33,922 nt of DNA from an uncultured archaeon (GCA_964388035.1 CAYLZE010000050.1:1-33922), one strand, 5' to 3'; positions 173-22,354 are shown, numbered from the stretch's first letter. Numbers and translations: made by a program. Notes: generated by a model not told the origin, from the sequence alone.

Positions 173-1394
173 ATTAATAAAAATAATGGAACCGAGACTG
201 ATTTTAGCACAAAATATATCATCATCACCTCATATAATATAAGCGGAGTCGTAGAAAAAAGCGATATTGTGGGAGCTATATTCGGCCAAAGATTATAAAA
301 AAGAGCCTTATCGGCTTATCGGCTAAACAGAAGGCCTTCTTTTAGATCTAGACTTAAGAGATTTACAAAAGTCGGGTCGAATAGGGCGGATTGAAGTAAC
401 CTTAGAATCAAAGGAAGGTCAAACGGAAGGAATCATTAAGATTCCAAGTAGCCTCACAAGAAAAGAAACTGCGCTTCTCGCGGCAACAGTAGAAACGGTC
501 ACGCGTGTTGGTCCCTGTGAAGCAGAAATCAAATTAAGGGAAATAAAGGATGTTAGAGAGAGCAAGCGGAAAAAAATCATAAAGCGTGCAGCCGAATTAT
601 TAAAAGAATGGGATAATAAGTCTTTAGAATCAAGTGAAATTGAGGAAAAAATTGATAAGGACATTAATTTAGGAGAAATTATAGCTTGGGGTCCTGATAA
701 TTTACCAGCAGGACCTGATGTTGAGAATAGCGATGAACTTATTATTGTTGAAGGTCGTGCGGATGTACTGAATCTTTTAAGGATAGATGTTAAAAATACG
801 GTTGCCGTTCAAGGCACAAATGTTCCCAAATCTGTAATGGATTTGACCCGAAAAAAGAAATCTGTTATTGCTTTCGTGGATGGAGATAGAGGGGGCACTA
901 TAATTTTAAACGAGCTCCAGCAAGTGGCAAAATTAGATTATATAGCAAGAGCCCCCGAAGGATTTGAAGTTGAGGAACTTACCCGTAAACAATTAATAAA
1001 AGCTTTACAAAATAAAAGATCCATCAAAGGAGAAGTAATCGAGCAAGTCGAACCATCTGTACCCGTGCCTAATCCTAAAGATGATGCTTTAACAAAAATG
1101 TTAAACAAGGTAAAAATTAAGAACGGGAAAAATCTCATGGATACGGTTCATTCCATTCAAGCGGGTCAAGCAATTGGTTTCGATAAAGAGGGTCAGAAAT
1201 TATTTGAAATCCCTGTTTCAGAACTTTATGAAAAAATTGAAAATCATGCGGATTTACAGGGTTTAGTGATTAATGGCATTCTAAGCGAGAGATTGCTGGT
1301 TCTTTTAATGAAAATGAATGTTTCTTTTGTTTCTTGCCGCAATAAAGAAGAAGATTTAATGATTCCCAATAAACTTTCTGTCTATTTTTTCTAA
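173..1394 (+). CDS. dnaG: Archaeal DnaG (TOPRIM, exosome-associated), split by a 37-nt BHB intron; join(173..289,327..1394), ~394 aa; start uncertain
   Basis: Exon 1 reads ...STKYIIITSYNISGVVEKSDIVGAIFGQ and ends at 289. Exon 2 starts at 327 with TEGLLLDLDLRDLQKSGRIGRIEV and is open into the 837..1394 ORF, with TOPRIM motifs IVEGRADV and FVDGDRGG. No in-frame ATG upstream; ATT at 173 chosen because it follows SD-like GGAAGTGA. Confidence 0.9.
290..326 (+). other. Predicted BHB-type mRNA intron in dnaG (37 nt)
   Basis: Central helix GGCC(284-287)/GGCU(321-324); bulges AA|A (288-290) and AA|A (325-327); intron stem GAU/AUC; exon pairing UUC(281-283)/GAA(330-332). Removal restores GAIFGQ-TEGLL. 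Confidence 0.85.
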
Positions 1395-1414
1395 CTTATT
1401 TTTTTCCACTTTTT

Positions 1415-1837
1415 TTAAATTTTTTTACTATTATATTTCACGTTAATGGGAATTCCTCCAATGAGCGAATTCGTTACCACGCAAAATTCTTGGAACGTGG
1501 AAAGACAATGCTCTAATCTCTGTGAGTAAATTTCCTTTATTTCAACATGGATCTCAACATCAACTTCTTTTAAACGGAGTCGCATTTTTGGTCCTTGGTG
1601 TTTTATAATTCCCTCCACTATAAGGGATAAGTTATTTATTTCCACATTATTTTTTTGAAGACAATAAACGAAAGAGGAGCCCAAACATCCTCCAATACCA
1701 ATTAATATGTATTCTACCGAGCTAGGACCGAGATTTGTGCCATGAAAGGATTCTGGTTCATCCACGTGGATCTCCTTAAAATTCCTCACGGATGCAGTAA
1801 AATGGAGATGCTCAGAAAAATCTAAATAGATCTTCAT
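1415..1837 (-). CDS. OsmC/Ohr-family protein
   Basis: DEP..G...GP..E...GC motif and a second Cys in FCVV; 140 aa. Confidence 0.85.
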   Translation of the reverse strand: MKIYLDFSEHLHFTASVRNFKEIHVDEPESFHGTNLGPSSVEYILIGIGGCLGSSFVYCLQKNNVEINNLSLIVEGIIKHQGPKMRLRLKEVDVEIHVEIKEIYSQRLEHCLSTFQEFCVVTNSLIGGIPINVKYNSKKI

Positions 1838-1900
1838 TTCTATGAATGCTAAGCAGATTTAATTTAATTAGATGCATGCAATTATTTTATTGAGAATTTC

Positions 1901-2143
1901 TTATTTCCCAATCGGCAATGCCACGGAAAAAATGAGCTGGATAACGTAAGATAGAGCACCCAGTATGACGAGTCCAATCGCACAGATCTTAAATACCAAA
2001 AAGTATTCTTTTCTATTTGGTTTTTTTGCAACTTTAAGTACCCGTTTTGAACTTTTAAAAAAGTTTACGATTCGATCGTAATATCCTTCCTTTTTCTTGG
2101 CACCTTTCTTTAATTTATCATATTTCGGATATGACATGGTCAT
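1901..2143 (-). CDS. secE: Protein translocase SecE/Sec61-gamma
   Basis: RVLKVAKKPNRKEY followed by one TM helix (ICAIGLVILGALSYVI); lies downstream of ftsY; start at 2143 or 2137. Confidence 0.9.
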   Translation of the reverse strand: MTMSYPKYDKLKKGAKKKEGYYDRIVNFFKSSKRVLKVAKKPNRKEYFLVFKICAIGLVILGALSYVIQLIFSVALPIGK

Positions 2144-2199
2144 TAAATTTAAAAAATAGGTAGTAAAAGAAGTTAACGATAGGTAAAATTTAAAGTTCC

Positions 2200-3099
2200 T
2201 CATTCCATATCTAATATTTTTGAAACAAAAAGATCAGGATCAAATTTTTCTAAATTATCATATTTTTGACCCGTTCCAATAAAAATGATGGGTTTTTTTG
2301 TTTCTTGAGAAATGGAGAGGGCTGCTCCCCCTTTAGCATCTGCATCTAGTTTCGTCAATATATTAGCATCAATCCCTACATATTGATTAAATTCTTTTGC
2401 TTGATACAAGGCATCATTTCCAGCAAGGCTATCCCCCACGAAAATTTTCAAATCCGGCTGAGCCACGCTGCTAATTTTTTGGATTTCTCTCATCAAATTT
2501 TTATCGGTAACTTGGCGTCCGGCGGTATCTATCAATACCACATTTACATTTTTGGCTTTAGCATGCTCTATCGCGTCAAACGCAATGGAAGCGGGATCTG
2601 ATTTATATTGTTGCTTGATGATCCTCACGCCCACGTTATTCATGTGAAAACTTAACTGTTCTATAGCTCCAGCCCGAAACGTGTCAGATGCTGCAGCAAC
2701 AACCGAGAAGCCCTTCTCTTTCAGGAGATGAGCGATCTTCGCCATTGTAGTTGTTTTGCCAGTCCCATTTACTCCTAAGAAGAGCACCACGTACGGTTTC
2801 TTATTATCTCGACTTTTTTGAACTTCTTGAATTAAATCAATCTGCTTATCGGGAGTCAGAATTTCTTCTATGATATCTTTTAAAATATCGTATAGCATTC
2901 TTTTGGTCGACTTTAATCGCCCTACTTGTTCTCCTTTATATGCATCAACGATTCTATTACAAATATCTTCCGCAGTATCCATCGCTACATCATTACTTAA
3001 AAGGAGCAATTTTAAATCAGATAGAGAATTATCCAACGATTTTTCTGTTAAGGTCTTGTTAACAAATTTAGAAAAAACGTCTTTAAGTTTTTCTAACAT
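2200..3099 (-). CDS. ftsY: SRP receptor GTPase FtsY
   Basis: GVNGTGKTTT, DTFRAGA, DTAGR and TKLDADAKGG motifs. Confidence 0.97.
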   Translation of the reverse strand: MLEKLKDVFSKFVNKTLTEKSLDNSLSDLKLLLLSNDVAMDTAEDICNRIVDAYKGEQVGRLKSTKRMLYDILKDIIEEILTPDKQIDLIQEVQKSRDNKKPYVVLFLGVNGTGKTTTMAKIAHLLKEKGFSVVAAASDTFRAGAIEQLSFHMNNVGVRIIKQQYKSDPASIAFDAIEHAKAKNVNVVLIDTAGRQVTDKNLMREIQKISSVAQPDLKIFVGDSLAGNDALYQAKEFNQYVGIDANILTKLDADAKGGAALSISQETKKPIIFIGTGQKYDNLEKFDPDLFVSKILDME

Positions 3100-3129
3100 G
3101 ATTTTAAGGAGTTTTTTATGATCTAAGTT

Positions 3130-3576
3130 CTAAGGTTGCATTTGTTGAAGGAGATTTTGTAGATTTTGAGTAAGGTTCTGTAAATCTAGCTCTGCTTGTT
3201 GGAATTGCTCGTTAAATTTCTTTGCTTGTTCTTCTTGTTGCTGGATTGAGTTTTCCAGAAATGCAATTGCATCATCCAGTTTCTTTTCCATTACTACATC
3301 TTCAGAAATTCGAACCAGTACTTTTTCAACATCTTTGATTTGGGCTTTAATATTTATTAAAGGACCTACCGGTACCAAGATCTCATCATTCACGTTAATC
3401 GTTTTTAAATTTTCGAGGGTACTTTTCATGAATTGAAAAGTAGTAAGAGAAGTTTCAAATATTTGTAATTGCTCTTCCAATTGATCTCGATAGGCTTTTA
3501 ATTGTGAATAATTATATTGCTGCTGTATTAGAACTTGTCGCAAATCCATGTTATAATTATTTTCCATTTTTTCCAC
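3130..3576 (-). CDS. pfdA: Prefoldin alpha subunit
   Basis: Coiled coils flanking EILVPVG...KVLVRI; conserved position upstream of ftsY. Confidence 0.9.
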   Translation of the reverse strand: MEKMENNYNMDLRQVLIQQQYNYSQLKAYRDQLEEQLQIFETSLTTFQFMKSTLENLKTINVNDEILVPVGPLINIKAQIKDVEKVLVRISEDVVMEKKLDDAIAFLENSIQQQEEQAKKFNEQFQQAELDLQNLTQNLQNLLQQMQP

Positions 3577-3588
3577 ACAAATATAGTT

Positions 3589-3819
3589 TTATAGGGAAGA
3601 TAACTCGCGAATGAGATAATCTTCTGCTAATTCTGGCTTTATTTCTTCTACTTTTTCAATTTTTAATTGTCTTCTAAGAATTCCAATACTAGTGATTTGG
3701 CAGAGAACTTTTTCAATCGCATTTTCTTCTTTTAAAGCCCTTACTTCTTTACGAAACAAGTATTTTTTCCGATTCTTTACGTAGGTTCCAGTAACTCGAA
3801 ATATTTTTATTTCCGACAT
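3589..3819 (-). CDS. rplX: 50S ribosomal protein LX (eL20/L18Ae)
   Basis: KIFRVTG...FRKEVRALKEENAIEKV; lies between eIF6 and pfdA. Confidence 0.88.
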   Translation of the reverse strand: MSEIKIFRVTGTYVKNRKKYLFRKEVRALKEENAIEKVLCQITSIGILRRQLKIEKVEEIKPELAEDYLIRELSSL

Positions 3820-3964
3820 GGGTTCAAAAAAATGTTAAACTGATGGTTAATAAGTGTTCTAAAAATATAAATTTAGAAGAATAAAATTATGTTCAAGATA
3901 ATGTTTAAAAAATATTAAGTTTTTCCTTTTTAATTAAATAATGCAGCATGGGAAGTAAGGTCCA

Positions 3965-4633
3965 TTAAATTTGTAATACGCTGGTAAGTCTCATGAGTTC
4001 GGGACCAGTACTGTTTGCACCAAAGATTCCATTCTCATCATTGACAATTGCACCTGATCTAAGGAAAGGAATGCCCCGATTAATAGTAGAAACGTCCGTC
4101 TCTACCACCTTTAGAATGGATTTAACATGTTCAATTTCATCGTCATTCGATAATGGATGCACTAGACAACCTTTATTGTTTGCAATCGATATGGATCCCG
4201 GTAAAAAATATCCCGCAAATTCGTAAACTTGCGTTTCCACATTTAATATGTCCGCGATTTCATGTTGATAACTGCGCAGGAGAGAACTAATGATGGCTCC
4301 TTTATCATTACACGCAATCAAATTTCCAAAGGTATTATCTTTAGATTTTATTATACCGATTTGATAAGAGTCTCCTAGATTGGTCTTTAATTTACTTAAT
4401 TCATCATCTCGAATAATATTGGGAACGATAATTCCATTCTTATTGGATACGCTATACACTCCGAGTAAATGAGAATTATTAATGGATTGGGGATAAAAGG
4501 GGATCTTGAAAACCCTCCTAAATTCATCTAATTTGGGCTTAAGTAAATTGGGGGGATATAATACAAAGGAGTTATTTGCTACAAAATATATTCCTATTAA
4601 AGAACGTCCGTACACTTGGGATTTTAGAATCAT
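3965..4633 (-). CDS. eif6: Translation initiation factor 6 (aIF6)
   Basis: ANNKGCLVHP, TINRG, TGPELMRL motifs; operon context. Confidence 0.93.
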   Translation of the reverse strand: MILKSQVYGRSLIGIYFVANNSFVLYPPNLLKPKLDEFRRVFKIPFYPQSINNSHLLGVYSVSNKNGIIVPNIIRDDELSKLKTNLGDSYQIGIIKSKDNTFGNLIACNDKGAIISSLLRSYQHEIADILNVETQVYEFAGYFLPGSISIANNKGCLVHPLSNDDEIEHVKSILKVVETDVSTINRGIPFLRSGAIVNDENGIFGANSTGPELMRLTSVLQI

Positions 4634-4678
4634 AAAAAGTTATACCCGTGCCTGCTGAATATGAGAAGTTTATATTTT

Positions 4679-5140
4679 TTAAGCGAGATAGACCACTACC
4701 AGCCCATCAACATTTTTGGTGGCTCTTACTTTTAACTTTCTTGGAGGTTTATGTATCCCACGTTCCCAGATTTTTTCGTTAACTTCTTGAGAGATAACGA
4801 TTGATTCTGGTTTAAAATGCCTTGTCATGTAATCTCGTAAATATCTAATGGATTTCTTGGCCCATTTATTTCGAGGACCTCTTCTTGCTTTCGCGAGAGG
4901 GATAGTATAAATTCGCTCATCTATTATTTCTACTTCCGGAGCTTCTTCAATTTCCTCTTCTTCTTCCACCTCTTCTTCTAGCAGTTCTTCGATTTCTTCT
5001 TCTTCGGTAATTTCATCTAAACTGAACTCCTCGATTTCCTCAATTTTCTCTTCTTTTTCTTCTTTTTCCTCCTTCTCGTCTCCTTCAGCCAATTCTTCTT
5101 CTAAATCATCTAAACTTATTTCTCGCTTTTTTTTTGCCAT
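4679..5140 (-). CDS. rpl31e: 50S ribosomal protein L31e with long acidic N-terminal extension
   Basis: ERIYTIPL...VNEKIWERGIHKPPRKLKVR; GGAG upstream supports the 5140 start. Confidence 0.93.
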   Translation of the reverse strand: MAKKKREISLDDLEEELAEGDEKEEKEEKEEKIEEIEEFSLDEITEEEEIEELLEEEVEEEEEIEEAPEVEIIDERIYTIPLAKARRGPRNKWAKKSIRYLRDYMTRHFKPESIVISQEVNEKIWERGIHKPPRKLKVRATKNVDGLVVVYLA

Positions 5141-5169
5141 ATTCTCTCCTTCCATTAATTATAAGTGAA

Positions 5170-5331
5170 TTAATCCTTCTTTAAACGAGTATTTCTCCAT
5201 CCTCTCCGGGTATAGGGGCTATCTCTTACTTTACCGTTTGTTTTTAAAATTACCCAACGAGGTATCGAGCCACTTTCCTTCAACTTTTTAGCTCTCCTTA
5301 GCTTGGATGGAAGATCTTTATTTCGTGCCAT
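5170..5331 (-). CDS. rpl39e: 50S ribosomal protein L39e (53 aa, absent from ORF track)
   Basis: Manual translation MARNKDLPSKLRRAKKLKESGSIPRWVILKTNGKVRDSPYTRRGWRNTRLKKD; immediately upstream of L31e. Confidence 0.93.
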   Translation of the reverse strand: MARNKDLPSKLRRAKKLKESGSIPRWVILKTNGKVRDSPYTRRGWRNTRLKKD

Positions 5332-5353
5332 TTTATTAAGTATTCTGTTATTT

Positions 5354-5698
5354 TTAAAATCGTTTAATATTAAAATCTTTTTTCTTGTTAGATTGAGCTA
5401 TTTGTTCTAATAAGTTTTTAAAAGCTTCATCTGGTAATGGAGTCTTTCCGCGTAATCGTCCTGCTCTATACAATTGAATTAATTGCAATTCAATTTGTTC
5501 AGCAAATTCCGCTTTAACCATCCTGATATTTTCTAACCGTTGACGTGCTTCAGAACTGAGAATGATTCTCATTATCTGGTATTTTTGATCTTCGTAGGAT
5601 TTTCTTTGCTGATCGGCAATTTGTTGCTGCATGGCTTGTTGTTTAATTTGTTCGAGTTTTCTCCTTCTGATTTCTTCTAAATCCTCTTCTTCACTCAA
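5354..5698 (-). CDS. PDCD5-like dsDNA-binding protein
   Basis: DLEEIRRRKLEQ...ILSSEARQRLENIRMVK..FAEQIELQLIQL; TTG start after GGAGTGA. Confidence 0.92.
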   Translation of the reverse strand: MSEEEDLEEIRRRKLEQIKQQAMQQQIADQQRKSYEDQKYQIMRIILSSEARQRLENIRMVKAEFAEQIELQLIQLYRAGRLRGKTPLPDEAFKNLLEQIAQSNKKKDFNIKRF

Positions 5699-5731
5699 TT
5701 TTATTCACTCCAACAAGCTATTTTATTAGAA

Positions 5732-6163
5732 TCATGTCTTTTTATTTCTTATAATTGAATATGCCGTTCGTTCCAACAAACTTATTCCTTCAGGAGAAAC
5801 TACCCGCCCTTCTTTTTCCACTGTAGCGATTAATTTCGCAGCTTCAAGTTGTTGTAAAGCAACTCTTATTATTTTTCCAGAACCACGGATACTATGACGC
5901 ATTCCCTGCCTGTTATTCGAACGACCGGAATAATGCTTTCGTAATTTATTTATCCCTATGGGGCCGTATTTTTTTACTTTTCTTAATAGCGACGCACAAC
6001 GCACATACCAAAAGTTCTCCGAATCTGCAGGCGCTAATTCTTTATAGCTGGCTGTTTTCCAAAACTCGCTCCCTTGGGGGGGATATATAATATCGGAAAA
6101 TTCTTTTAATTTCTCAGCTAATGTAGTAATAAGTTCTAATGATTCTACTCTGTATATCGACAT
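5732..6163 (-). CDS. rps19e: 30S ribosomal protein S19e
   Basis: KELAP...WYVRCASLLRK...GSGKIIRVALQQLE. Confidence 0.95.
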   Translation of the reverse strand: MSIYRVESLELITTLAEKLKEFSDIIYPPQGSEFWKTASYKELAPADSENFWYVRCASLLRKVKKYGPIGINKLRKHYSGRSNNRQGMRHSIRGSGKIIRVALQQLEAAKLIATVEKEGRVVSPEGISLLERTAYSIIRNKKT

Positions 6164-6239
6164 TCATCTAACACTTTAGTAAATAAACTTATTTAGAAAG
6201 AAAAATATCCCATTTAATAATAATTTTTTGATAGACAAC

Positions 6240-6494
6240 ATGAGTTCTCAAGAAGACTTAAAAAAGATTTTACTCTCGAAGCCTCACGCTATTCTCGGTA
6301 AAAAAGTCATCACGGAGGAATTTATCGCTCATTTAAATAAATTGTTGAAAAGATATAAACTCATAAAAATTAAAGCACTTAAAAGTGCTATTCATAATAA
6401 TACAATAGAAAGCATAGCAAATGAGTTATCAGAACGTACTCAATCACGATTAGTCGATCTCCGGGGAAGAACTTTTATTCTTTCTATTAAGTAA
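6240..6494 (+). CDS. YhbY/CRM-domain RNA-binding protein
   Basis: ILGKKVIT...LIKIKAL...VDLRGRTFIL. Confidence 0.8.
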   Translation: MSSQEDLKKILLSKPHAILGKKVITEEFIAHLNKLLKRYKLIKIKALKSAIHNNTIESIANELSERTQSRLVDLRGRTFILSIK

Positions 6495-6531
6495 TTGAAT
6501 GAAAAATTGTTTTATTTTTGAAAACGTTCCC

Positions 6532-6855
6532 ATGGTAAAGAACAAAGCTATAATAAAGAAGATCGCAACTTACCGCATGAATTATTTATTTCAAAGAGCC
6601 CATGATGTTTTTCCCGAAAATAAACAGCTAGCCAATAGATATGTTCAGTTAGCCAGAAAATATGCACAGAGAGCTAAAATTCCGGTACCAAGGGAATGGA
6701 GCCGACGGATCTGCAGTAAATGCAAGCAATTTTTATATCCTGGCGTTAATTGCCGGTATCGAGTACAATCTCGTCGCGGAAAAGGATCTCATGTCTCTCT
6801 AACTTGCTTGGAATGTTTAAAAGTTAAAAGATACTACATAAAAACTTCAAAATAA
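6532..6855 (+). CDS. rnp4: RNase P protein component 4 (Rpp21/Rpr2)
   Basis: IA..RM..LF...LANRYV.LA; zinc ribbon CSKC...CLEC. Confidence 0.92.
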   Translation: MVKNKAIIKKIATYRMNYLFQRAHDVFPENKQLANRYVQLARKYAQRAKIPVPREWSRRICSKCKQFLYPGVNCRYRVQSRRGKGSHVSLTCLECLKVKRYYIKTSK

Positions 6856-6894
6856 TGTTAAAATCTTCCCATTTATCAATAAAAGGATAAATCC

Positions 6895-7569
6895 ATGCCA
6901 TTAATCTTAATTTTAGCTGAATGCGGAATAGAAATAATTCCCAAACGTTTAAGGACCAATTTCAATGTAAAGAAACAAATTAGATCACGAAATTATTCCT
7001 CCCAACTATTAGATAATGCACTTCATCACTCTAGCATGGAAAATTTAAAAAAACAGGAAAAAAGAGGACGCCCGGACATCCTTCATGTTTGCTTACTCAA
7101 TGCGCTAGGTTCGCCTTTAAATAAAGCAGGGAACTTAAAAATTATCGTTCATACGATTAAAAATAAAATCTTTGAATTTAACCCCGAAATCCGAATTGCT
7201 CGCAACTATAATAGATTCAAGGGATTAATGGCAAAACTATTGATTGATGGCAAGATAGGAATTGCGGAAAATTATTTAATCTCACCGATTGAAGGGTCCT
7301 TGAAACAATTCATTACTACCATAAAAGAACCGGAAATAATTTTGTTTTCGAAAAGTGGTAAATTAATTTCTAACATGAACGAGTTATTTTCAACTGATTC
7401 TGATACAAATTATGTGAGTATTATTGGTGGATTCCAAAAAAGCTCTTTTTCTCCCCAGATTAAGTCTCTAACTAATAATCTAATAAGCATCTCCAATTAT
7501 TCCCTGGATGCGTCGTCCGTGGTTTCTAAAGTTATCACCATTTATGAATTAATACATGACATTTATTAA
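6895..7569 (+). CDS. nep1: 16S rRNA pseudouridine N1-methyltransferase Nep1/Emg1
   Basis: LLDNALH, RGRPDILH, SPLNKAG, RNYNRFKGLM motifs. Confidence 0.93.
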   Translation: MPLILILAECGIEIIPKRLRTNFNVKKQIRSRNYSSQLLDNALHHSSMENLKKQEKRGRPDILHVCLLNALGSPLNKAGNLKIIVHTIKNKIFEFNPEIRIARNYNRFKGLMAKLLIDGKIGIAENYLISPIEGSLKQFITTIKEPEIILFSKSGKLISNMNELFSTDSDTNYVSIIGGFQKSSFSPQIKSLTNNLISISNYSLDASSVVSKVITIYELIHDIY

Positions 7570-7730
7570 TTAATCAAATGATTCTTTCCTTCCTTAAAGT
7601 TAAAATGAGATGATGTTTTTTAAATCATATATTTGTGAAGTGAGTATGGATTATAACTTTTGATTCATATTTGACTCATATCTGATTCAAAAAAGCGCTC
7701 GTAGTCTAGTGGTAGGATTGTGGCCTTCCA

Positions 7731-7758
7731 TGGAAATCTTTTACGGGTTTCTGAAGAA
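7731..7758 (+). other. tRNA-Gly intron 1 (28 nt, canonical 37/38)
   Basis: BHB: helix CUUC/GAAG, bulges CA|U and AA|A, intron stem GGAAAUC/GGUUUCU. Confidence 0.92.
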
Positions 7759-7779
7759 AGCCATCGACCCGGGTTCGAA

Positions 7780-7808
7780 TTTGAGCTCATTACGAGACTT
7801 GACGAGAT
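7780..7808 (+). other. tRNA-Gly intron 2 (29 nt, T-loop 59/60)
   Basis: BHB: helix UUCG/CGAG, bulges AA|U and AU|U, intron stem UUGAG/CUUGA. Confidence 0.88.
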
Positions 7809-7946
7809 TCCCGGCGGGCGCATCTAATCCTTTATTATATTATATACTATTTTAATTCCTTTAGAAAGTAATTTTATGGAAGACTTTTTTACTTATTTTA
7901 ATTATCGTTTTAAATGCAAGCATGATTTTGAGATAATCCGACTACC

Positions 7947-9083
7947 ATGGTCAATTACATCACCCGCGAATTCAAAACAGCCCTTAATAAACTAAAGTAT
8001 CCAGATTCTTGGTTTTGGGTAAGATATACCATTAATCCTTATTCGGGATGTGAACATGCGTGCATATATTGTGATGCCAGAAGTCAGCGGTATTATTTAG
8101 AGCAAGACTTCGAGCATGAAGTAGTTTTAAAGAAAAATATGGATAAAAATTTAGATTTGAAACTCAGAAACGCTCGTTCTTTGTTACCGGATGTAATTGG
8201 TGCGGGAGGTGTAAACGATGCCTATCAACCCATAGAACGAGAAGCGGAAAATACGCGTAAAATACTTGAAGTAATCGCGAATCACAAGTATCCCGTTAAT
8301 ATTGCAACGAAATCTAAGTTAATCTTGCGAGATTTAGACCTGTTGGAGAAAATTGCTAAGAAAACCTGGTGTGCGATAGGTTTTTCCATAACTACGACGA
8401 ATGAAGAATTGGCGAAGTTTTTGGAACCGCATTCAAGTTCTTCCATGGAACGGTTTCACGCAATTAAAGAGATAAAGCAAAGAGTTCCAAATATTCAAGC
8501 AGGTACTTACTTCATGCCTATTATTCCATTTTTAGAAGATGATGATGAAAATTTGGAAAATGTAATGAGAGAATCCAAAGAAGCAGGAGCCGACTTTGTT
8601 TTATTTTCACCTGGTTTAACCTTGCGGGATTCCCAAGCAGATTTTTTTATAAATAAATTAAAGGAAAGCAAATATCGAGACGTTATCAAACCACTATTAG
8701 AGTTATTCAAAGGAAACACGTATCCTTCCCTGAATTATATTATTAAAATTCATACTAAGCTCTGGAAGTTGAGTGAAAAGTATCAAGTCCCCGTAAGAAT
8801 AAAAAGGTGGATTCCCAAGGATTTTCGTAAATGGAATTACAAGATAGCAGAACTCTTATTGAACACGGAATATATCGCTTCCCTTAAAGGTAATCCGAAT
8901 AATACCATGAAATGGGCGGGATTAAATCTCAATAATTTAAAAGAATCGATAATAGACGTGTACAAGAGGGATGAATTATCCAAATTACCCAATTTTAATA
9001 AAAAAATTATCTCTTTTATTCAGCCATATTTAGATAAGAGTAAAGAATTACATGAAAAAAAGGGGATAGAACGATTTCTGTAA
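7947..9083 (+). CDS. Radical SAM protein (SPL/Rv2578c-like, possibly DNA repair)
   Basis: INPYSGCEHACIYC (CxxxCxxC), DAYQPIE, TKS motifs. Confidence 0.85.
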   Translation: MVNYITREFKTALNKLKYPDSWFWVRYTINPYSGCEHACIYCDARSQRYYLEQDFEHEVVLKKNMDKNLDLKLRNARSLLPDVIGAGGVNDAYQPIEREAENTRKILEVIANHKYPVNIATKSKLILRDLDLLEKIAKKTWCAIGFSITTTNEELAKFLEPHSSSSMERFHAIKEIKQRVPNIQAGTYFMPIIPFLEDDDENLENVMRESKEAGADFVLFSPGLTLRDSQADFFINKLKESKYRDVIKPLLELFKGNTYPSLNYIIKIHTKLWKLSEKYQVPVRIKRWIPKDFRKWNYKIAELLLNTEYIASLKGNPNNTMKWAGLNLNNLKESIIDVYKRDELSKLPNFNKKIISFIQPYLDKSKELHEKKGIERFL

Positions 9084-13328: not shown

Positions 13329-13339
13329 GTGTTTAACTC

Positions 13340-14512: not shown

Positions 14513-15041
14513 CCACCTTTAGGATATAGTGTATAGATAAATACTTCTATATAAATTTTAGTCTTATGTTTTCAACGATCTAAATGATTTTCCCAATTTA
14601 AATGCAAATTTAAATATAAAAGTGGGATATAAAGCCTACATGGACATTATTTCTTACTCATGATTCTTAATCTATAAGGTAATAAGGATAAATCTTACAT
14701 TTTCTCTCTGAAGCCATTTCTTGCTAAGATAATTTCTGATTTCTTTATTAAAACTTAATAACAATCTTATGAAGATACAATATTTGAGAGAAATCATTAA
14801 ATACCAAAACCTCAATTTACCTTGACATGAATTGAATAAAAAGGTCAATAAAGGGTATCCTCCATCTATTTCTCTAAGAATTAATAAAATTTATATGATA
14901 CGCTCAATTATATGATTTACATTTGATGGTAATTTACATCAGATAAAGAAAGAATCATGCCTCATTGGGTAGAGAAGCATGAAAATCTTTCGAAATAGCA
15001 AAGATTTTTCGAAACTGGAGCAATAGGCCAAGGTGGCGTAG

Positions 15042-15070
15042 AAATGAGTTAATCTCTTACTTTTGCGCAA
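15042..15070 (+). other. tRNA-Phe intron 1 (29 nt, D-loop 15/16)
   Basis: Helix GCGU/GCGC, bulges AG|A and AA|C; removal yields a normal D loop. Confidence 0.85.
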
Positions 15071-15115
15071 CCCGGGAACGCACCAGACTGAAGATCTGGG
15101 TATCGAGGGTTCAAA

Positions 15116-15145
15116 TAAAAAGCTCTTCTCGAACTTTTTTGGTAC
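15116..15145 (+). other. tRNA-Phe intron 2 (30 nt, T-loop ~59/60)
   Basis: Helix UUCA/UGGU with one U-U mismatch, bulges AA|U and AC|U, stem AAAAAG/CUUUUU. Length is fixed by the 7-nt T loop; exact register is +/-2 nt. Confidence 0.8.
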
Positions 15146-15402
15146 TCCCTCCCTTGGCACATTTTCTCTCTCTATTTATATTCATTAGTTAATACTAAAA
15201 CTAATTTTAAAGAAAGATTTTCCATCTATGAATAGCATATCTTAAGGTTAATACTTAAATAGATTAGATCTGCAATCATTATACTATAAATGTAATTTTA
15301 TTCCTCTTTTTTTTGATAATGAATCTATTCTAATAATTGAGAGCAAAAAAGCCAAATAAAAAGTCAAATATTGAACCAAGAAAAAGGATACATCAAAACT
15401 TT

Positions 15403-15852
15403 CTAAGATTTACCTCGTCTTTTATCCTTTTTTATAAACTCCTTAAAATATGCATTATTATCATCGATGAATTCCCAAAACTCTTCATAAATCTCCTTCA
15501 ATTTTGTTCCAATTTGTTTGTGAAGATTAGCACCTTTATCTTGTCCCCCCTTAGAACTCAATTTCTCATTTATCTTGAAAGGTCTATTTTCAATTTCAAA
15601 ATCAACTTTTTGATATCCCCGAACCTTGAAATTCTTATCGATAAATGCTTGAAAATGATGCTCACATATCAATCTTTTCGGAATAGAAACCGTGGTTAAT
15701 TGGCTAGAATTATTTACAACTTCAATAGGGATATTAATTTCTTTCTCAGCTTTACAGTTAGGACAAATGAATTTAATGCATCTAAAGTTTTCCTCGGGGA
15801 GATCCTCTTCATATGAATTTTTAAAATAAATTTTCTGCTTTGTTAAAGCCAT
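15403..15852 (-). CDS. Hypothetical zinc-binding protein
   Basis: CPNC...CEHHFQAFIDKNFKVRGYQKVD. Confidence 0.7.
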   Translation of the reverse strand: MALTKQKIYFKNSYEEDLPEENFRCIKFICPNCKAEKEINIPIEVVNNSSQLTTVSIPKRLICEHHFQAFIDKNFKVRGYQKVDFEIENRPFKINEKLSSKGGQDKGANLHKQIGTKLKEIYEEFWEFIDDNNAYFKEFIKKDKRRGKS

Positions 15853-15957
15853 CTTTTTATAAATTACCTCTTTTAATTGAAAAAAAAAACATGATTTAAA
15901 TTAAAGAAGAGATAGCTGGTTTAGTGAAATCAAATGAATTTTTTTCCTATTTCGATT

Positions 15958-16980
15958 TTAAGGAGCAACTTCTGAGATTTTAACGGGTCTTTTTTCTTTA
16001 AAGGATTTTTGAGCCGCAAGGGCAATCAAGACAGCTTTTAAGCCGTCTTCACCGTCCGGTTTCGGCGGCTTTCCTTGTTGAAGACAATCAAAAAAATATC
16101 GTAATTCATTCGCATATGATTGAAGATAGCGATCCAAAAAGAAATAAGGAATTTTATCCGATTGAATGCATTCCGTGGTATACATGCGAACGGTATTGCT
16201 TGCTGCATTATCCGCAATCAAGCATCCTTTGGAACCGAAGACTTCTAAGCGCTGATCATACCCATAGACCGCTTGCCGGGAATTATCAATTAATCCCATC
16301 GCACCGTTTTCAAATTTAAGAACTGCGATTGCTGTATCAATATCACCCGCTTTACCGATTTCTGGGTCAATAAGAGCTGCTCCATTAGCAAAAATCTCCT
16401 CTACTTCGCTTAATGCTTGAAATCGCGCCATATCCCAATCATGAATCGTCATATCCAAGAAAATTCCTCCTGATACTTTTATATATTCAATGGGAGGAGG
16501 TGATGGGTCTCTAGAGGTAATTTTTATAATTTGGGGGATTCCAACATGGCCTGATTTTACAAGTTCATGCAATCTATCGAAATTTGGATCAAATCTTCGA
16601 TTAAATCCAATCATGAGATTCATTCCTGAATCTTGAACAACTTTTAATGTATTTTTGATTCTATCAACATTTACATCAATTGGTTTCTCACAAAATATAT
16701 GTTTGTGATGGGTCACCGCTTCCGTAATGAATTTTACATGAGTATCCGTGGAAGATGCGACTATAACTGCCTTTATTTCAGGATCTTCAAAAATCTCTTC
16801 CGAATCATTTGATAAATCCATCCCTTTCGACACTTGGGCTAACTTTTTTAAATCATCATCAAATTTAATATCCACAACCGTCTTAAGCTGTATATCAGTA
16901 AACTTCTTTAGAAGATTATCCAAGTGAATTTTGCCAATCCGTCCCGTTCCAATTAATCCAACTTTTATTTTTTCGTTCAT
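15958..16980 (-). CDS. iolG: myo-inositol 2-dehydrogenase (Gfo/Idh/MocA family)
   Basis: GTGRIG, CEKP, GFNRRFD, SGGIFLDMTIHD, YGYDQRLEVFGSKG. Confidence 0.92.
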   Translation of the reverse strand: MNEKIKVGLIGTGRIGKIHLDNLLKKFTDIQLKTVVDIKFDDDLKKLAQVSKGMDLSNDSEEIFEDPEIKAVIVASSTDTHVKFITEAVTHHKHIFCEKPIDVNVDRIKNTLKVVQDSGMNLMIGFNRRFDPNFDRLHELVKSGHVGIPQIIKITSRDPSPPPIEYIKVSGGIFLDMTIHDWDMARFQALSEVEEIFANGAALIDPEIGKAGDIDTAIAVLKFENGAMGLIDNSRQAVYGYDQRLEVFGSKGCLIADNAASNTVRMYTTECIQSDKIPYFFLDRYLQSYANELRYFFDCLQQGKPPKPDGEDGLKAVLIALAAQKSFKEKRPVKISEVAP

Positions 16981-17173
16981 GATTTATTTGGAAATATTCT
17001 TTCTTCCCTTTATTTTTAATCAGTGAAAAATTTTTTTATAGCATGGTTCTTGTAGGAAGGTTGTAAACCTTTTCTCATTAGTAGAAAGCTTTTTATAGTT
17101 AATAGATACAAACTTTAAATTAATAATTTTCAAATTAATAATTTCAAAAAACGAAATTGGAAAAAAAAATATT

Positions 17174-18577
17174 ATGAGTGAAAAAGAACCTCTAAAAATC
17201 ACGCGACGAATGCGTTTTGCATTTGCAACGGGTGAAGTGGGAGATAATACGGCTTTAAACATTTTCAACTTCTTGATCTTTACTTTTTATTTCACGGTGG
17301 TAAAATTACCCGTTTTATGGATAACTACAGGCTTTATCATCTGGAGTTTTTGGAACGCGGTCAACGACCCTTTAACGGGATACTTTTCAGACCGGACCAG
17401 AAGTAGATGGGGTCGCAGAGTGCCTTGGATGATGGTTGCCGTAATCCCATTAGGCGTGTTAATGATATTACTTTTTACACCTCCTATTAGTTTTGGAGAT
17501 GCTTCTAATGTGGCCAATTTCATCTATTTCCTACTGATCCTTGTTCTTTTTGATACAATATATACTGCAATCAATTTGAACTATAATGCCCTTTTTTCTG
17601 AAATGTTTGTAGAAATGAAAGATCGAAGCGCCACGGGCAAAGTTCGCATTACTTTTGTGATGTTGGGAACCATTTTTGCATATCTATTTCCAACCTTTAT
17701 TATCCAGGATATAACGAATAAATTAAATGATCCCATAACAATAACCCAATACCAAATAACGGGACTTATTGCGGGAATTGTTGTACTCATGGCTTATTTC
17801 ATAATTTTAAAATGGGGCGTTCGGGAACCAAAAGTGTTTTCAAAAGATGCTGAGACGGCAATGAAATTTATTCCTACATTTAAAAAAGCCTTTCAGAATA
17901 AATCATTTCTCTGGTTTTTATTTCCCGCCTTAGGAACTTGGATGGTAATAGGTATCTTGCCAACATTAGCTCCACTTTTCATGACTTATGGAATTGGAAT
18001 CGAGGATACTGAATTAATTGGTGTCGTTCTTTTAGTCATTTTTCTTGCATCTGCATTTTCCACGCCATTATGGGAAAAAATTCGAGTTAAGTGGGGTGCA
18101 CGAATGTCTGGCTTGATAGGAATCATTGTATGGATGGTTCCTGTGCTATTTTTCGCATTCTCGACGAGTTTTGAAATGGCTATAATTATTGCAATTTTTG
18201 AAGGGATAGGATTAGGAGGAGGACTTTATTTTTACGACCAATGCATCGCAGAAATAATAGATGAGGATGAAATTAAATATGGAACGAGAAGATCCGGCAC
18301 GTATTACGCCGTTATCAATTTTTTGATTCGGCTAAGTTCTGTATTAAACTTTGTAATTATTGGGCTCGTATTTTCTAGCTCAGATTGGCAAACTTATGTT
18401 CCGAATCCCGGAGTTGATACGATTTTTGCCCTTAGAATGTTAATGGGGGTATATCCAATGATTGTCCTGGCAATCTCAGCAATTGGTTTGTATTTCTATC
18501 CAATTCATGGGCAGAGATTAATGGAAAATAGGCAAAATTTGACAGAATTACATCAACAAAAAAGAAGCAAGCTTTAA
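17174..18577 (+). CDS. MFS glycoside-pentoside-hexuronide (MelB-like) transporter
   Basis: ~12 TM; NAVNDPLTGYFSDRTRSRWGRR; DEDEIKYGTRRSG. Confidence 0.88.
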   Translation: MSEKEPLKITRRMRFAFATGEVGDNTALNIFNFLIFTFYFTVVKLPVLWITTGFIIWSFWNAVNDPLTGYFSDRTRSRWGRRVPWMMVAVIPLGVLMILLFTPPISFGDASNVANFIYFLLILVLFDTIYTAINLNYNALFSEMFVEMKDRSATGKVRITFVMLGTIFAYLFPTFIIQDITNKLNDPITITQYQITGLIAGIVVLMAYFIILKWGVREPKVFSKDAETAMKFIPTFKKAFQNKSFLWFLFPALGTWMVIGILPTLAPLFMTYGIGIEDTELIGVVLLVIFLASAFSTPLWEKIRVKWGARMSGLIGIIVWMVPVLFFAFSTSFEMAIIIAIFEGIGLGGGLYFYDQCIAEIIDEDEIKYGTRRSGTYYAVINFLIRLSSVLNFVIIGLVFSSSDWQTYVPNPGVDTIFALRMLMGVYPMIVLAISAIGLYFYPIHGQRLMENRQNLTELHQQKRSKL

Positions 18578-18879
18578 GATTAAATAATTTTTCTTCTTTT
18601 TATTTTTATTTGTCATTAATATCCTTAGTGTTTGAACTTTTGAATGGATTAATTTGAATTTATAAAAAGATTAAGAGCTAAATATAGCATTATTTGAAAG
18701 TGTTGATTACTATTTCCCTTGATTTTTTTTATTAAAAAAATATTCAATTATGATGCTCTCCAACCGAATTACCTTAAATTAACTGTCTTTCTTATTAATA
18801 AAATAAATAAAATAAATACAAATTAATCAAATGGATGATTTTAAATATTTAAAATAATTGATAAAAAAGTCAAAATAAT

Positions 18880-20087
18880 ATGAAAGCAATTGAATTAAAA
18901 GCAAAATGGGACCCTAAACCGAATTTTAAATTAGGACCTAAAGATATCGAAGGAAAATTAACATATTTAGGTTCACAAGTATGGAGAAATCCTTCGATAA
19001 ATGTGGTGGAAAAACAAAAGCCAACGATTAAGGCTAATGAGGTACTAATTAAGGTGAAACGATGTGGAAATCTTGAAAATTATTTTTCAAGACCATAATA
19101 TGTGGTTCCGATGTGCACATGGCGCAAACACATGAAGACGGATATATATTTTATCCCGGTCTTACTGCCTTTCCCGTAACTCTTGGACATGAATTTTCAG
19201 GAGAAGTCTCTGAAGTGGGGGAAAAAGCCATCAATAAAAGAACGGGCAAACCATATGAACTCGGAGAACCAGTCACAGTAGAAGAAATGGCCTGGTGTGG
19301 AGAGTGTAGACCATGCTGCGATGGATTTCCAAACCACTGCGAGCGACTTCAAGAAATAGGTTTTTCAATTGATGGTGCATTTGCTGAATACATCGCAGCC
19401 CCCGCAAAATTATGCTGGAGTTTGAAAAAATTACAGGGAAAATATGAGGATATTTATAAAATAGGAAGTTTGGTGGAACCGACATCGGTTGCGTATAACG
19501 CCGTCATCGAACGGGGAGGTGGCATACGCCCGGGAGAAAATGTTATTATTTTAGGAGGAGGTCCAATTGGCATTGCTGCAACGGCAATTTTGAAAAGAGC
19601 AGGGGCTGGTATTTGTATTTTATCGGAACCGAATGAGCATAGAGCTCGCTTGGCAAGGAAAATGGGTGCCGATTATATTATTGATCCCTCAAAAGAGAAT
19701 TTTGTTGAAAAAGTTAAAGAATATACCGATAGAGAGGGGGCTGCTATCTATTTAGAAGCAACGGGACTTCCTCATATAGTTACTGATGACATCCAGAATG
19801 CTATTTGGGAATGTAAAGCAGTTAATAGTACCGTTGTTATTGTCGCCAGAGCAGAGCAGAGAATGCCTATAATTGGTGAATATTTTCAAGTAAAAAGGGC
19901 TCGAATAGTTGGTTCACAGGGTCACAGTGGACATGGGACGTTTCCTAATGTCATTAGTTGCATGGCCACGGGAATGGACATGTCTCCCATGATAACAAAG
20001 GAGATAAAGCTCGAAGAAGTAAGTGAAAATCTAAAAAGACTTCAAACCGACAGAGAAAACTGCAAGATATCCGCTAAATTAGGATAA
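18880..20087 (+). CDS. iolM: Scyllo-inosose 3-dehydrogenase (Zn-dependent MDR), split by a 29-nt BHB intron; join(18880..19069,19099..20087), 392 aa
   Basis: N-terminus AKWDPKPNFKLGPKDIEGKLTYLGSQVWR closely resembles Thermotoga IolM as I recall it. Spliced motif KRCGICGSDVHM; GHEFSG; structural-Zn CGECRPC...C; GGGPIG. Confidence 0.9.
19070..19098 (+). other. Predicted BHB-type mRNA intron in iolM (29 nt)
   Basis: Helix GUGG(19064-67)/CCAU(19093-96); bulges AA|A and AA|U; perfect 9-bp intron stem UCUUGAAAA/UUUUCAAGA; exon pairs AU/AU. Confidence 0.92.
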
Positions 20088-20162
20088 CCGTGAGGCTTTT
20101 AAAATCTTACCTTTTCAATTACTTTTTTTCATTAAAATTTAATACTCCCATTGGATTTATCA

Positions 20163-20984
20163 TTAAAAAACCTTCAATATTAAACTTAGATATTCCATGC
20201 TAGATTTTGCTACTTCTTCAAAAGATGGTTTCATGATTGTCTCAATTGATGCATAACCTTGATAACCAGAATCTTCAAAGATATTCAAGAAAGCTTTAAA
20301 ATCAAAATGCCCCGTTCCAGGAGCTCTTCTGGTACAATCTGATAAATGAATGTGTGAAACCAGGGGTGCGATTTTTACCAGATAATTCCATATAAAACCG
20401 GGATCCTCCTCTAAATGAGTATGAAATGAATCGATTAATAATTTAAGATTATCTGAGCCGATCTTTTCAATCAAATTAACCGCCTCCGATATGGAATTAT
20501 AGGAATCCATCTCAAAACTATTAATGGGTTCAAACACGAGCTCTACATCGTAGAGTTCTGCATTTCTACAACATTCCTTTAAGGAAGATTCAATGTTTAA
20601 TCGTTCTTTTTTGGGATTGCTGTGATAGCTATACCTCCCTCTAATTAAACCAATAATAACTTTTGCATTAAATTCTTTAGCAAATTTAATATATTCGCTA
20701 ATTCTAGCAATGGCTTTTTCTCGCATTTGCATTTCATGATGGCCTAAAGAGTATCCAAATCGCAGAAAAGTGCTACCTGTACCTAAAGCTGAAAGTTCCA
20801 TATCATAAGTTTCCAGAAGTTCATTAATTTCCGCTATATTGACTTTCTCCGGCTCCAATAAGCTCAATTCAATTCCATCGTAATTCAATGATTTCAGAAA
20901 GTCTAATAGAGAAGTAAATTTCTTGTTGATCTCTTCTTGATTCAACTTTTTTTCATTTAAAGAAGAGACTATACTAAGTTTCAT
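20163..20984 (-). CDS. iolO: Sugar phosphate isomerase/epimerase, likely 5-keto-L-gluconate epimerase
   Basis: YDGIEL, IIGLIRG, EPINSFE, DSFH, HIHLSD..RRAPGTGH; located inside the iol cluster. Confidence 0.78.
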   Translation of the reverse strand: MKLSIVSSLNEKKLNQEEINKKFTSLLDFLKSLNYDGIELSLLEPEKVNIAEINELLETYDMELSALGTGSTFLRFGYSLGHHEMQMREKAIARISEYIKFAKEFNAKVIIGLIRGRYSYHSNPKKERLNIESSLKECCRNAELYDVELVFEPINSFEMDSYNSISEAVNLIEKIGSDNLKLLIDSFHTHLEEDPGFIWNYLVKIAPLVSHIHLSDCTRRAPGTGHFDFKAFLNIFEDSGYQGYASIETIMKPSFEEVAKSSMEYLSLILKVF

Positions 20985-21356
20985 GATTTACCTTATTCCA
21001 TTTAAATTCCTCATTTTTTGTAAATTAATATCACTTTTAATATATTCGCTAAAATTATATTAAAAATTTATTACCATTTGATTGAAAAAAATAGGAAATT
21101 TAATTTTCACCTTACCGTGCTTTAAACACAATAAAAGCATATTGAACACGTTTTCTTAAAAATCTTAGCTCAATCAAACCCTTCCAATAGACTTGCATTA
21201 GATGATATTAATAAAGGTTCTATTTATTCTTTCTTTTATTCTAAATTTATTCATGCTCCCATGCTCACGATATTTTTTCAATACATAAAAATTTGAATGC
21301 ACTCGAATTATATTAATTAAATAGTTAAAAAATTTAGGAAAGGTGAAATAAAAAAA

Positions 21357-22354
21357 ATGACCGATTGGAATTTACCTCCTAAAGGAGGGCATATGGACCT
21401 CCCTGATGGAATCTATCTTCAAACCATGAATATTGCGGAAATAAGGGAGCGGGTTAAAAAAAATGATGTAATAATAATTCCCGTGGGCTCAACGGAAAAT
21501 CACGGTCCTGCGGCATGTATTGGAGAAGACACTTTTTTAGTAACCCGAATGGCAGAATTAGTAGCTCAAAAAACGGGATGCACGGTAGCACAGCCAACTT
21601 GGTATGGATCTCACCCATATCATCACGTGGGAATGCCTGGATCGATTATCGTGCCAGAAGAAATCTTTAAAGGTTTATTAAGAGCTGTAATGGCAGGTTG
21701 TTGGAATATGGGATTCAGGAAGCAAATAAAAACTTCTTTTTTTGCTTGAAAATGATCCTCCTGAATGGACATGGTCAGGAATATGTTATTCCCTCTGCCA
21801 TCCATGAATTTGCTAAAATTTATCAATTACCCATGGTCGTGTGTAATGTAAATTGGTATCATGCCATTCCCGAATATTGCAAAGATAAAGCACATGGTGG
21901 TCCCTTTGAAACCCCTTTTATCCACGCAGATGAGGCTGAAACTTCCTTTTCAATGACTTTATTCCCTGAAATGATTAAAAAGATCGATCTTAGTCGGGAT
22001 AATAAAATACAAGGTTGGATGCCTGAAGGACACGTGGATAAAGCGGGAAATGTATATAATAAACCAATTAAATGGTATGGGCAAGTAGGATTTAGTCCAA
22101 TTGAAGTCTCAGCTTATCCAGAAGGGCATGTTGGTTCTCCAAGTAAAGCCACTTTTGAAAAAGGAAAACCTGGAATGGACGCGCTTCTGAATTACTTGGA
22201 AAAGTTGGTTAATGATATTTTAAAAACTTTTCCCCCCGGGAAATTACCTCCGATTGAAGGCATTACTCAACGAGACCCTGAAGAAATACAAGCTTACTTG
22301 AAAGGACCTCTTAATGGAGGAAAAAGCATATATGAATTGCGATATCCTCCTTAA
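21357..22354 (+). CDS. iolN: 3-dehydro-scyllo-inosose hydrolase (creatininase family), split by a 29-nt BHB intron; join(21357..21721,21751..22354), 322 aa
   Basis: PVGSTENHG, GEDT, spliced GFRKMILLNGHGQE, HADEAETS; two overlapping ORFs each carry half of the domain. Confidence 0.88.
21722..21750 (+). other. Predicted BHB-type mRNA intron in iolN (29 nt)
   Basis: Helix CAGG(21716-19)/CUUG(21745-48); bulges AA|G and AA|A; intron stem CAAA/UUUG; exon helix GGAUU/GAUCC. A 29-nt deletion is what frame and motif spacing require. Confidence 0.8.

Follow-up and report, generated by a model that had tools for sequence, protein, structure and literature searches.

Bulge-helix-bulge (BHB) introns are well known, and in the literature that we searched their occurrence in archaeal coding sequences is documented for essentially cbf5 alone. 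The cbf5 pre-mRNA of Desulfurococcales and Sulfolobales carries a BHB intron that has been gained and lost among relatives, and the tRNA-splicing enzymes restore the reading frame by removing it (PMC2738675). Here, we describe a stretch of 33,922 nucleotides from an uncultured archaeon (GCA_964388035.1 CAYLZE010000050.1:1-33922; "the window" hereafter, meaning the whole stretch), in which seven putative BHB introns interrupt two tRNA genes (tRNA-Gly and tRNA-Phe) and three protein genes (dnaG, a Zn-dependent alcohol-dehydrogenase-like gene, ADH, and a creatininase-family gene). A first-pass annotation of the window had given their lengths as 28, 29, 29 and 30 nt in the tRNAs and 29, 29 and 37 nt in the mRNAs, and all seven are confirmed in the sequence, at positions that were right to within 1-3 nt; the offsets reflect boundary ambiguity in runs of A.

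Among tRNA introns, the closest described systems are those of the Thermoproteales and of other Asgard archaea. Non-canonical and multiple BHB tRNA introns of the Thermoproteales were described by Marck and Grosjean (2003), Sugahara (2008) and Fujishima (2010), as cited in 10.64898/2026.10.13.758758 and PMC4090602. According to that preprint, 28% of Thermoproteales introns, which serve as its control, belong to families of at least 80% identity, and near-identical introns at different sites form the basis of the transposition model for this group (10.64898/2026.10.13.758758). For Asgard archaea, the preprint reports heavily interrupted tRNA genes in which standard finders miss many introns, repeated gains at BHB-competent sites, two EndA paralogues as a common feature, and a median intron of 22-23 nt in Freyr-, Jordi- and Atabeyarchaeaceae (10.64898/2026.10.13.758758).

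The window is the entire contig C50 of an assembly of 5.47 Mb with 33% GC, an estimated completeness of 96.7% and a contamination of 7.3%. Since the window DnaG is 63-70% identical to the DnaG of Promethearchaeota/Promethearchaeia metagenome-assembled genomes (MAGs), including 'Loki_b32', the host is, judged by this protein, a Loki-type Asgard archaeon. Below, G000 denotes this source genome and G001 a genome of the same genus, while the other G numbers are other relatives.

A narrow intron length class across the genome

This genome has a narrow class of intron lengths, which is real and belongs to the non-canonical tRNA introns and the mRNA introns, not to all introns present. Standard tRNA and gene finders perform badly on genomes of this type. 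Because ARAGORN and Rfam, run over the window at normal thresholds, called neither of its two tRNAs, the tRNA calls were rebuilt from acceptor and T-arm anchors. With the Rfam tRNA model the window tRNA-Phe scores 18.6 bits and the tRNA-Gly, on account of its introns, just 17.3 bits; both genes were first picked out as GC-rich intergenic islands, after which BHB geometry was scored explicitly. In the whole genome ARAGORN finds just 7 intron-free tRNA genes, and about 19-23 tRNAs are obtained by intron-permitting ARAGORN and Rfam RF00005 (19 above the Rfam cut-off), sometimes with wrong anticodons. ARAGORN with introns allowed often errs in this way: its 'tRNA-Pyl(CTA)' on C7 is a tRNA-Gln(CUG) with a 32-nt intron.

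The census of tRNA genes was made without any splicing motif. Seeds were GTTCRA with a GC-rich T-stem, and an anchor had to have the partner strand of the T-stem at a loop of 7 or of 7 + 8-130 nt, a 7-bp acceptor stem and U8. Introns of 9-75 nt were next placed by a solver working arm by arm, whose score contains no BHB term, BHB serving as tie-breaker alone. The strict hBHBh' motif (the BHB with outer helices) was dropped as the basis of the census, as it catches merely three of the seven window introns. ARAGORN as a judge of constructs spliced in silico accepted hundreds per locus, and our own arm scorer was used instead. The scan gave 104 anchors. Where these were well paired, T-loop inserts were confined to 28-31 nt, and the excess length of the 5' part of the tRNA genes fell into groups at 0-2, 26-34, 52-65, 89 and 111 nt, i.e., in steps of about 30.

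Introns in mRNAs were harder to separate from background. A scan for BHB inserts that merge two open frames was burdened by adjacent genes and spurious open frames, and no excess appeared until AA bulges were required; with AA at both bulges, candidates of 19-160 nt stood above wrong-frame decoys solely at 28-30 nt (11 vs 2 and 2). BLAST of spliced peptides against paralogues returned 523 loci at loose settings, which is unspecific, and 25 at strict ones; the credible loci among the latter were the strong-hairpin ones alone, with introns of 29, 30, 30, 30 and 35 nt. The three mRNA introns of the window are joined by at least seven elsewhere in the genome. These seven were drawn from the candidates merging two open frames and are backed by paralogue alignments that span the junction or by conserved motifs that splicing restores (e.g., ITNQ/RET, KHS/TGG and GD/GG; a slash marks the junction). 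The co-linearity of open-frame fragments with paralogues revealed mainly single in-frame stops and few introns. Paralogue alignments bridge such stops at 49 sites of G000 (TGA 22, TAG 16, TAA 11); part of them may be selenocysteine or pyrrolysine codons, and the bridged TAA suggests pseudogenes, errors or read-through.

The census amounts to 33 tRNAs with 52 introns (at least 26 of the 33 carry 1-3 of them) and 10 mRNA introns, 62 in total. Four introns are 28 nt long, 15 are 29 nt, 21 are 30 nt and four are 31 nt, which places 44 of the 62 at 28-31 nt. The convergence on about 29 nt that had been noticed among the seven window introns is thus not a small-sample effect. The ten mRNA introns measure 29, 29, 30 (six times), 35 and 37 nt. 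Among tRNA introns, 34 of 40 non-canonical ones lie at 28-31 nt, versus 2 of the 12 canonical ones between positions 37 and 38, whose lengths are 19, 21, 23, 24, 28, 28, 32, 37, 38, 39, 43 and 45 nt (Fisher p = 2.5e-5, Levene p = 7e-9). By site, the 28-31-nt introns make up all of those in the T-loop (18/18), the non-canonical anticodon arm (6/6) and the variable region (2/2), two of three at position 26 and 6 of 11 in the D-arm, where non-canonical introns of 19-27 nt are also present. The contrast between canonical and non-canonical lengths is the new point of this analysis; our literature search found no paper describing a 28-31-nt intron class.

The typical member of the class begins with one bulge nucleotide, followed by about 9 bp of stem that a loop of about 5 nt closes; then come the returning strand of about 9 nt, a 4-mer and two bulge nucleotides, 29-30 nt altogether. 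The stem most often spans 8-9 bp, and the commonest loop has 5 nt. Of 26 hairpin loops, 14 have a terminal C (p = 6e-5) and nine a terminal UC (p = 1e-4). A central UCG occurs in 15 of the 62 introns against 6.9 expected, and the bulge dinucleotide is AA in 21 of the 62 on the 5' side and in 26 on the 3' side. The introns are AU-rich (mean GC 0.38), and several 29-nt members have weak predicted hairpins, e.g., those in the tRNA-Phe D-loop and in the creatininase gene (the latter 0.0 kcal/mol by minimum free energy). Among the canonical introns, stems of 3-6 bp occur.

The first-pass annotation had seen no common primary sequence among the introns, and all-against-all local alignment of the 62 largely agrees, yet it brings out two clearly related pairs of T-loop introns, one in Lys(CUU) and Lys(UUU), the other in Ser(GCU) and Leu(GAG); scores of at least 12 number 5, versus 0.7 in shuffled sequences. 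The pairs lie (0-based, strand coordinates) at C10:6452 (Ser-GCU) and C23:25333 (Leu-GAG), and at C10 minus strand 88388 (Lys-CUU) and C23:28641 (Lys-UUU). The Ser/Leu pair bridges two amino-acid types, both with class II tRNAs, and hints that a T-loop intron has now and then passed between tRNA genes. A likeness of another kind joins the dnaG short forms described below (L008, L009, L102) and the position-26 intron of tRNA-Pro(UGG) on C19, which have in common a hairpin core of an A-run, GAGCTC and a T-run (AAAAGAGCTCCTTTT and AAAGGAGCTCCTTT, respectively); such a core may have arisen by chance, the palindromes being AT-rich, or may be a remnant of shared ancestry.

The seven window introns and their predicted splicing

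The interrupted genes of the window, all on the plus strand, are as follows.

140-289, +: dnaG exon 1, reading frame ..TKYIIITSYNISGVVEKSDIVGAIFGQ, matching the conserved archaeal DnaG N-terminus in 40 relatives
290-326, +: dnaG intron, 37 nt (BHB register p=289, q=327; boundary ambiguous within AAA)
327-1394, +: dnaG exon 2, Toprim primase-like (Pfam Toprim_4, Toprim, Toprim_2)
7695-7822, +: tRNA-Gly(UCC) with two introns, from the anchor scan and arm solver
7731-7758, +: tRNA-Gly intron 1, 28 nt, canonical position 37/38, strict hBHBh'
7780-7808, +: tRNA-Gly intron 2, 29 nt, T-loop 59/60, strict hBHBh', central helix UUCG with CGAG
15027-15159, +: tRNA-Phe(GAA) with two introns, from the anchor scan and arm solver
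15042-15070, +: tRNA-Phe intron 1, 29 nt, D-loop 15/16, central helix GCGU with GCGC
15116-15145, +: tRNA-Phe intron 2, 30 nt, T-loop 59/60, boundary ambiguous by one T
18880-19069, +: exon 1 of the Zn-dependent ADH-like gene, open frame from the ATG at 18880, ending ..VLIKVKRCG
19070-19098, +: ADH intron, 29 nt, strict hBHBh', built as 1 + 9 bp + UUAU + 9 + CCAU + AA
19099-20087, +: ADH-like exon 2, Pfam ADH_N from profile position 15, then ADH_zinc_N
21357-21721, +: creatininase-family exon 1, Pfam Creatininase, profile positions 2-101
21722-21750, +: creatininase intron, 29 nt, central helix CAGG with CUUG, both bulges AA/N
21751-22354, +: creatininase-family exon 2, Pfam Creatininase, profile positions 103-238, contiguous with exon 1

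These inserts share a geometry in which an intron 4-mer, with just two intron bases after it, pairs with an exon 4-mer whose end lies 2 nt upstream of the 5' splice site. All four pairs of this central helix form in six of the seven introns when G-U is allowed, and three of four form in the tRNA-Phe T-loop intron, whose own stem has 6+2 bp; the terminal 4-mer complementary to the 5' exon, which had been claimed for every intron, is therefore complete in six. The AA that had been reported at the end of five of the seven introns is there. Both bulges have 3 nt. The strict hBHBh' form is present in three introns (both in tRNA-Gly and the one in ADH), and the outer exon helix is weak, as in a relaxed HBh'-type motif, in the creatininase, dnaG and tRNA-Phe D-loop introns. 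The creatininase intron has a stem of 8 bp with one mismatch, and the dnaG intron has the central helix GGCC with GGCU and AA/A at both bulges.

The predicted cuts yield canonical D-, anticodon- and T-loops in the two tRNAs and open reading frames in the three genes. Removal of tRNA-Phe intron 1 gives the D-loop AGCCCGGGA, and the T-loop UUCAAAU followed by CCCUC is obtained solely when 30 nt are removed. In dnaG the joined peptide reads FGQ/TEGLLLDLDLR. In ADH it reads CG/ICGSDVH, with a paralogue alignment spanning the junction and the ADH_N match picking up at position 15 in exon 2, and the creatininase splice joins profile positions 2-101 to 103-238. The junctions predicted by BHB geometry agree with the orthologues that lack the introns. 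Translational bypassing, CRISPR-type off-target spacer integration and transposon footprints were also considered as sources of such inserts and rejected: there are no take-off and landing codon pairs, the inserts share no termini, and target duplication is limited to the A-rich bulge repeat of 2-3 nt.

Genes for the splicing enzymes are present. EndA is encoded by two paralogous genes, whose products have about 200 aa and each combine a tRNA_int_endo_N with a tRNA_int_endo domain, whereas RtcB, of 492 aa, is encoded once; the EndA pair is compatible with a two-subunit enzyme. Because of the BHB geometry, the comparative gaps described below and the presence of these enzymes, we infer splicing, and we predict with high confidence that the seven inserts are BHB introns. 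In the transcript, the exon and intron 4-mers would form the 4-bp helix between the two 3-nt bulges, the two-paralogue EndA would cut within both bulges, and RtcB would ligate the exons, restoring the two tRNAs and three reading frames.

Two of these genes have further peculiarities. Between the stop at 137-139 and the intron, dnaG exon 1 contains no in-frame ATG, GTG or TTG, and the ATG at 186 is out of frame. In relatives the protein begins (M)EVIKIT.. with ATG or GTG, and G000 has ATC at that place (..SEIKIN..). The lack of a usual start would be explained by a non-canonical start, by an error in the assembly or by one more interruption. For tRNA-Phe(GAA), G000 contains two distinct genes with different intron sets: the window gene (C50:15027-15159), with introns in the D-loop and T-loop, and one at C104:11478-11579, with a single 30-nt intron in the anticodon loop. 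Either paralogy or the 7% contamination might account for the presence of two such genes.

Turnover among relatives and the dnaG intron

Between close relatives, members of the class come and go as exact units of 29-30 nt. No relative that was aligned, the same-genus G001 included, has the ADH, the creatininase or the tRNA-Gly T-loop intron. In the ADH gene a clean 29-nt gap is seen in G001 and in four further genera (G021, G024, G030, G013); in the creatininase gene, where the intron is likewise missing from four genera besides that of G001, it is seen in G001, G002 and G010, and the coding sequence of G013 and G030 is uninterrupted. The tRNA-Gly T-loop intron corresponds to a clean 29-nt gap in G001 and in three further genera (G015, G016, G017). 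This gap was observed by pairwise alignment, and the BLAST run did not resolve it as a single indel. Over 17.2 kb aligned with G001 at 69% identity, BLAST resolved four indels of at least 24 nt, namely two of the window introns, a 27-nt canonical intron in the G001 tRNA-Phe and a 24-nt intergenic insert.

Not every intron is missing from G001. The tRNA-Phe D-loop intron leaves a clean 29-nt gap in G017, and since no indel of at least 7 nt is found at its site in G001, that genome most likely carries the intron too. The tRNA-Phe T-loop intron is 30 nt long in both G000 and G017, although its sequences have diverged. The ADH orthologue of G013 (L054, G013:C200:1-3154) lacks the 29-nt intron of G000 and has an independent 30-nt intron 12 nt downstream of that site, with the design 1 + 9 bp + GAAUC + 9 + CCGA + AU.

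Canonical introns behave differently in size, the one of tRNA-Gly ranging from 20 to 31 nt among orthologues. The 28-nt intron at 7731-7758 has a 20-nt counterpart in G001 (L024), with 4 nt off each stem strand. The tRNA-Phe of G001 (L105/L106, G001:C38) contains an extra 27-nt intron in the anticodon loop, corresponding to window position about 15093, which is absent in G000, and the tRNA-Phe of G017 has a 20-nt intron near the same site. From these three states (27 nt, 20 nt and none), introns of the canonical region would therefore also have been gained or lost within the family.

Among 40 genomes compared, the dnaG intron is absent in 20 (21 with a distant Micrarchaeota homologue, counted separately), present as a short form of 29-31 nt in six, and present at the same site as a long form of 35-40 nt in 14. 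Orthologues without the intron have exactly 21 nt between the flanking motifs and show clean 37-nt gaps against G000. Nine of the 14 long forms measure exactly 37 nt, and the long form is kept in at least six genera; all long forms read ..GCC-NNNUC-GGC-NNAUC-GGCU-AA. The window intron had been described as 29 nt plus an 8-nt tandem duplication, and here the arithmetic holds and the tandem copy of CTTATCGG is present at 307-322. A recent date does not hold: since both ATCGGC units occur in 14 of 14 long forms (in genomes other than G000 with differing first bases), the duplication is not a fresh slip. It is plausible that the addition of 8 nt was an ancient event whose 37-nt product has since been held without return to 29. 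Given that nine of 14 long forms retain 37 nt despite sequence change, an intron of this off-size is not pulled back to 29-30 nt.

What sets the length, and comparison with known systems

Set against the variable canonical introns, the narrow class turns what sets the size into a testable question; the comparison speaks against a ruler in the enzyme and points to the process of gain. The first-pass annotation had offered both, the ruler and a common generating or mobilising process, and the second fits better, the narrow class being limited to non-canonical and mRNA introns and patchy among relatives. We lean slightly towards the view that introns of this class arise at about 29-30 nt, are held at that length by their helices and turn over fast. 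New introns would enter genes at this size through a shared generating or mobilising process. Length would then be fixed, as about 25 of 30 positions lie in helices or bulges, and compensatory changes would let the sequence drift while the length seldom shifts. Non-canonical introns, being patchy in close relatives, would turn over quickly enough for the starting size to be mostly still visible, whereas the older canonical ones would have drifted in length. The dnaG intron would be an old variant of the same kind, which gained about 8 nt (the second ..AUC-GGC unit) and then stayed at about 37 nt. A more specific proposal, which we put forward tentatively and believe rather less than we doubt, is that Promethearchaeia have an active process that makes or moves hairpin introns of one set size, about 29-30 nt, and inserts them into any transcribed gene where a local 4-mer can complete a BHB.

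The most serious rival, if on balance an unlikely one, is stabilising selection on the RNA: an AU-rich transcript would need a stem of about 9 bp and a small loop to display the BHB dependably in mRNAs and at non-canonical sites, where the tRNA body gives no help, and a deletion bias would trim longer introns to 29-30 nt whatever their origin. It accounts well for a uniform design in unrelated sequences, for orthologous introns that hold their length while the sequence diverges, and for canonical introns, which lean on the anticodon stem, tolerating stems of 3-6 bp; at a mean GC of 0.38, short stems would indeed be weak. Such selection, however, should leave a lower wall with an upper tail, and the observed peak is symmetric and narrow. 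Nor does it sit well with non-canonical D-arm introns of 19-27 nt, with weak hairpins in several 29-nt introns (tRNA-Phe D-loop; creatininase), or with the dnaG long form, which has not shrunk back in at least six genera. A weaker and, to us, improbable rival is that some function or protein-binding role of the excised introns of about 30 nt, which RtcB would probably circularise, or of their hairpin loops fixes both size and the C-ending pentaloop. The excess of loops ending in C or UC over composition, the surplus of central UCG and the same size across unrelated host genes would suit such a role; against it, primary sequence is conserved at no more than one or two loop positions, the loop motif is missing from many members, and free gain and loss among close relatives speaks against an essential product. 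No candidate binding protein was found, and no search for one was made.

A ruler in the enzyme, by which EndA or the ligase would take only introns of about 29 nt, predicts the narrow genome-wide peak at 29-30 nt, and, on indirect evidence, we consider it very improbable because canonical introns in G000 cover 19-45 nt. The same two EndA paralogues and single RtcB must process these, the D-arm introns of 19-27 nt and the 37-nt intron of the essential gene dnaG; nothing about either enzyme hints at a length gauge. It is scarcely credible that the pattern stems from chance in a small sample, or that the inserts are assembly errors or pseudogenes and not introns. The assembly is a MAG with about 7% estimated contamination, but 34 of 40 non-canonical tRNA introns fall within a 4-nt window (about 6e-36 under a uniform distribution over 9-75 nt), the inserts stand at conserved motifs of essential genes with BHB geometry, and many independently assembled genomes have the dnaG insert at one and the same site.

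Several observations weigh against an origin at 29-30 nt as set out above. Introns that arise at 29 nt and introns quickly trimmed to 29 nt are not cleanly separable, since even the same-genus comparison is already old (about 69-79% DNA identity), and the C-ending loop together with the symmetric, narrow peak could reflect selection on RNA. The signals expected from reverse ligation of excised circles, i.e., donor copies and excess similarity among introns, are at or near the shuffled level. In the whole-genome search for donor copies, 15 introns had non-self matches, against 6-11 after shuffling; introns compared with their own flanks, in direct or inverted orientation, showed no similarity; and merely two clear related pairs emerged from the all-against-all comparison. 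This analysis identified no gain mechanism or machinery, and the Asgard preprint likewise reports no copying, mobile-element or reverse-transcription route for tRNA introns (10.64898/2026.10.13.758758). As for the data, the ten mRNA introns were chosen by hairpin and bulge filters, not by length, and some multi-intron tRNA solutions are uncertain (e.g., C59-, C47+ and C31+ at 19046).

If such an active process exists, the closest prokaryotic relatives of eukaryotes would keep gaining protein-spliced introns in mRNAs and tRNAs, with uniform size as the signature, and a defined Asgard intron-generating mechanism would bear on the origin of intron-rich genes in the lineage leading to eukaryotes. 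The class spans tRNAs together with ordinary and essential protein genes and is held together by common size and fold, not by sequence.

This sets it beside the known systems as follows. As in the Thermoproteales, BHB introns that proteins splice out occupy many tRNA positions in G000, the D-arm and T-loop 59/60 among them; further shared features are several introns per gene, a two-subunit-type EndA and evidence of repeated gain. Unlike there, near-identical families are not found within the 62 introns of this genome; only the two related pairs occur, and the members have size and fold in common instead, those in protein-coding genes included. With the Asgard census, G000 shares interrupted tRNAs, introns missed by finders, repeated gains at BHB-competent sites, two EndA paralogues and the lack of any copying route found. 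In the portions of that text that we searched there is no mention of a 29-30-nt class, of the canonical/non-canonical contrast, of mRNA introns or of Lokiarchaeia (10.64898/2026.10.13.758758). As in cbf5, the frames of the dnaG, ADH-like and creatininase-family genes would be restored by removal of a BHB intron, which is of the same kind as the cbf5 intron but not the same intron. In contrast to cbf5, which is a single gene in Crenarchaeota, G000 has such introns, all of one size class, in three unrelated genes within 22 kb and at least seven more elsewhere in its genome.

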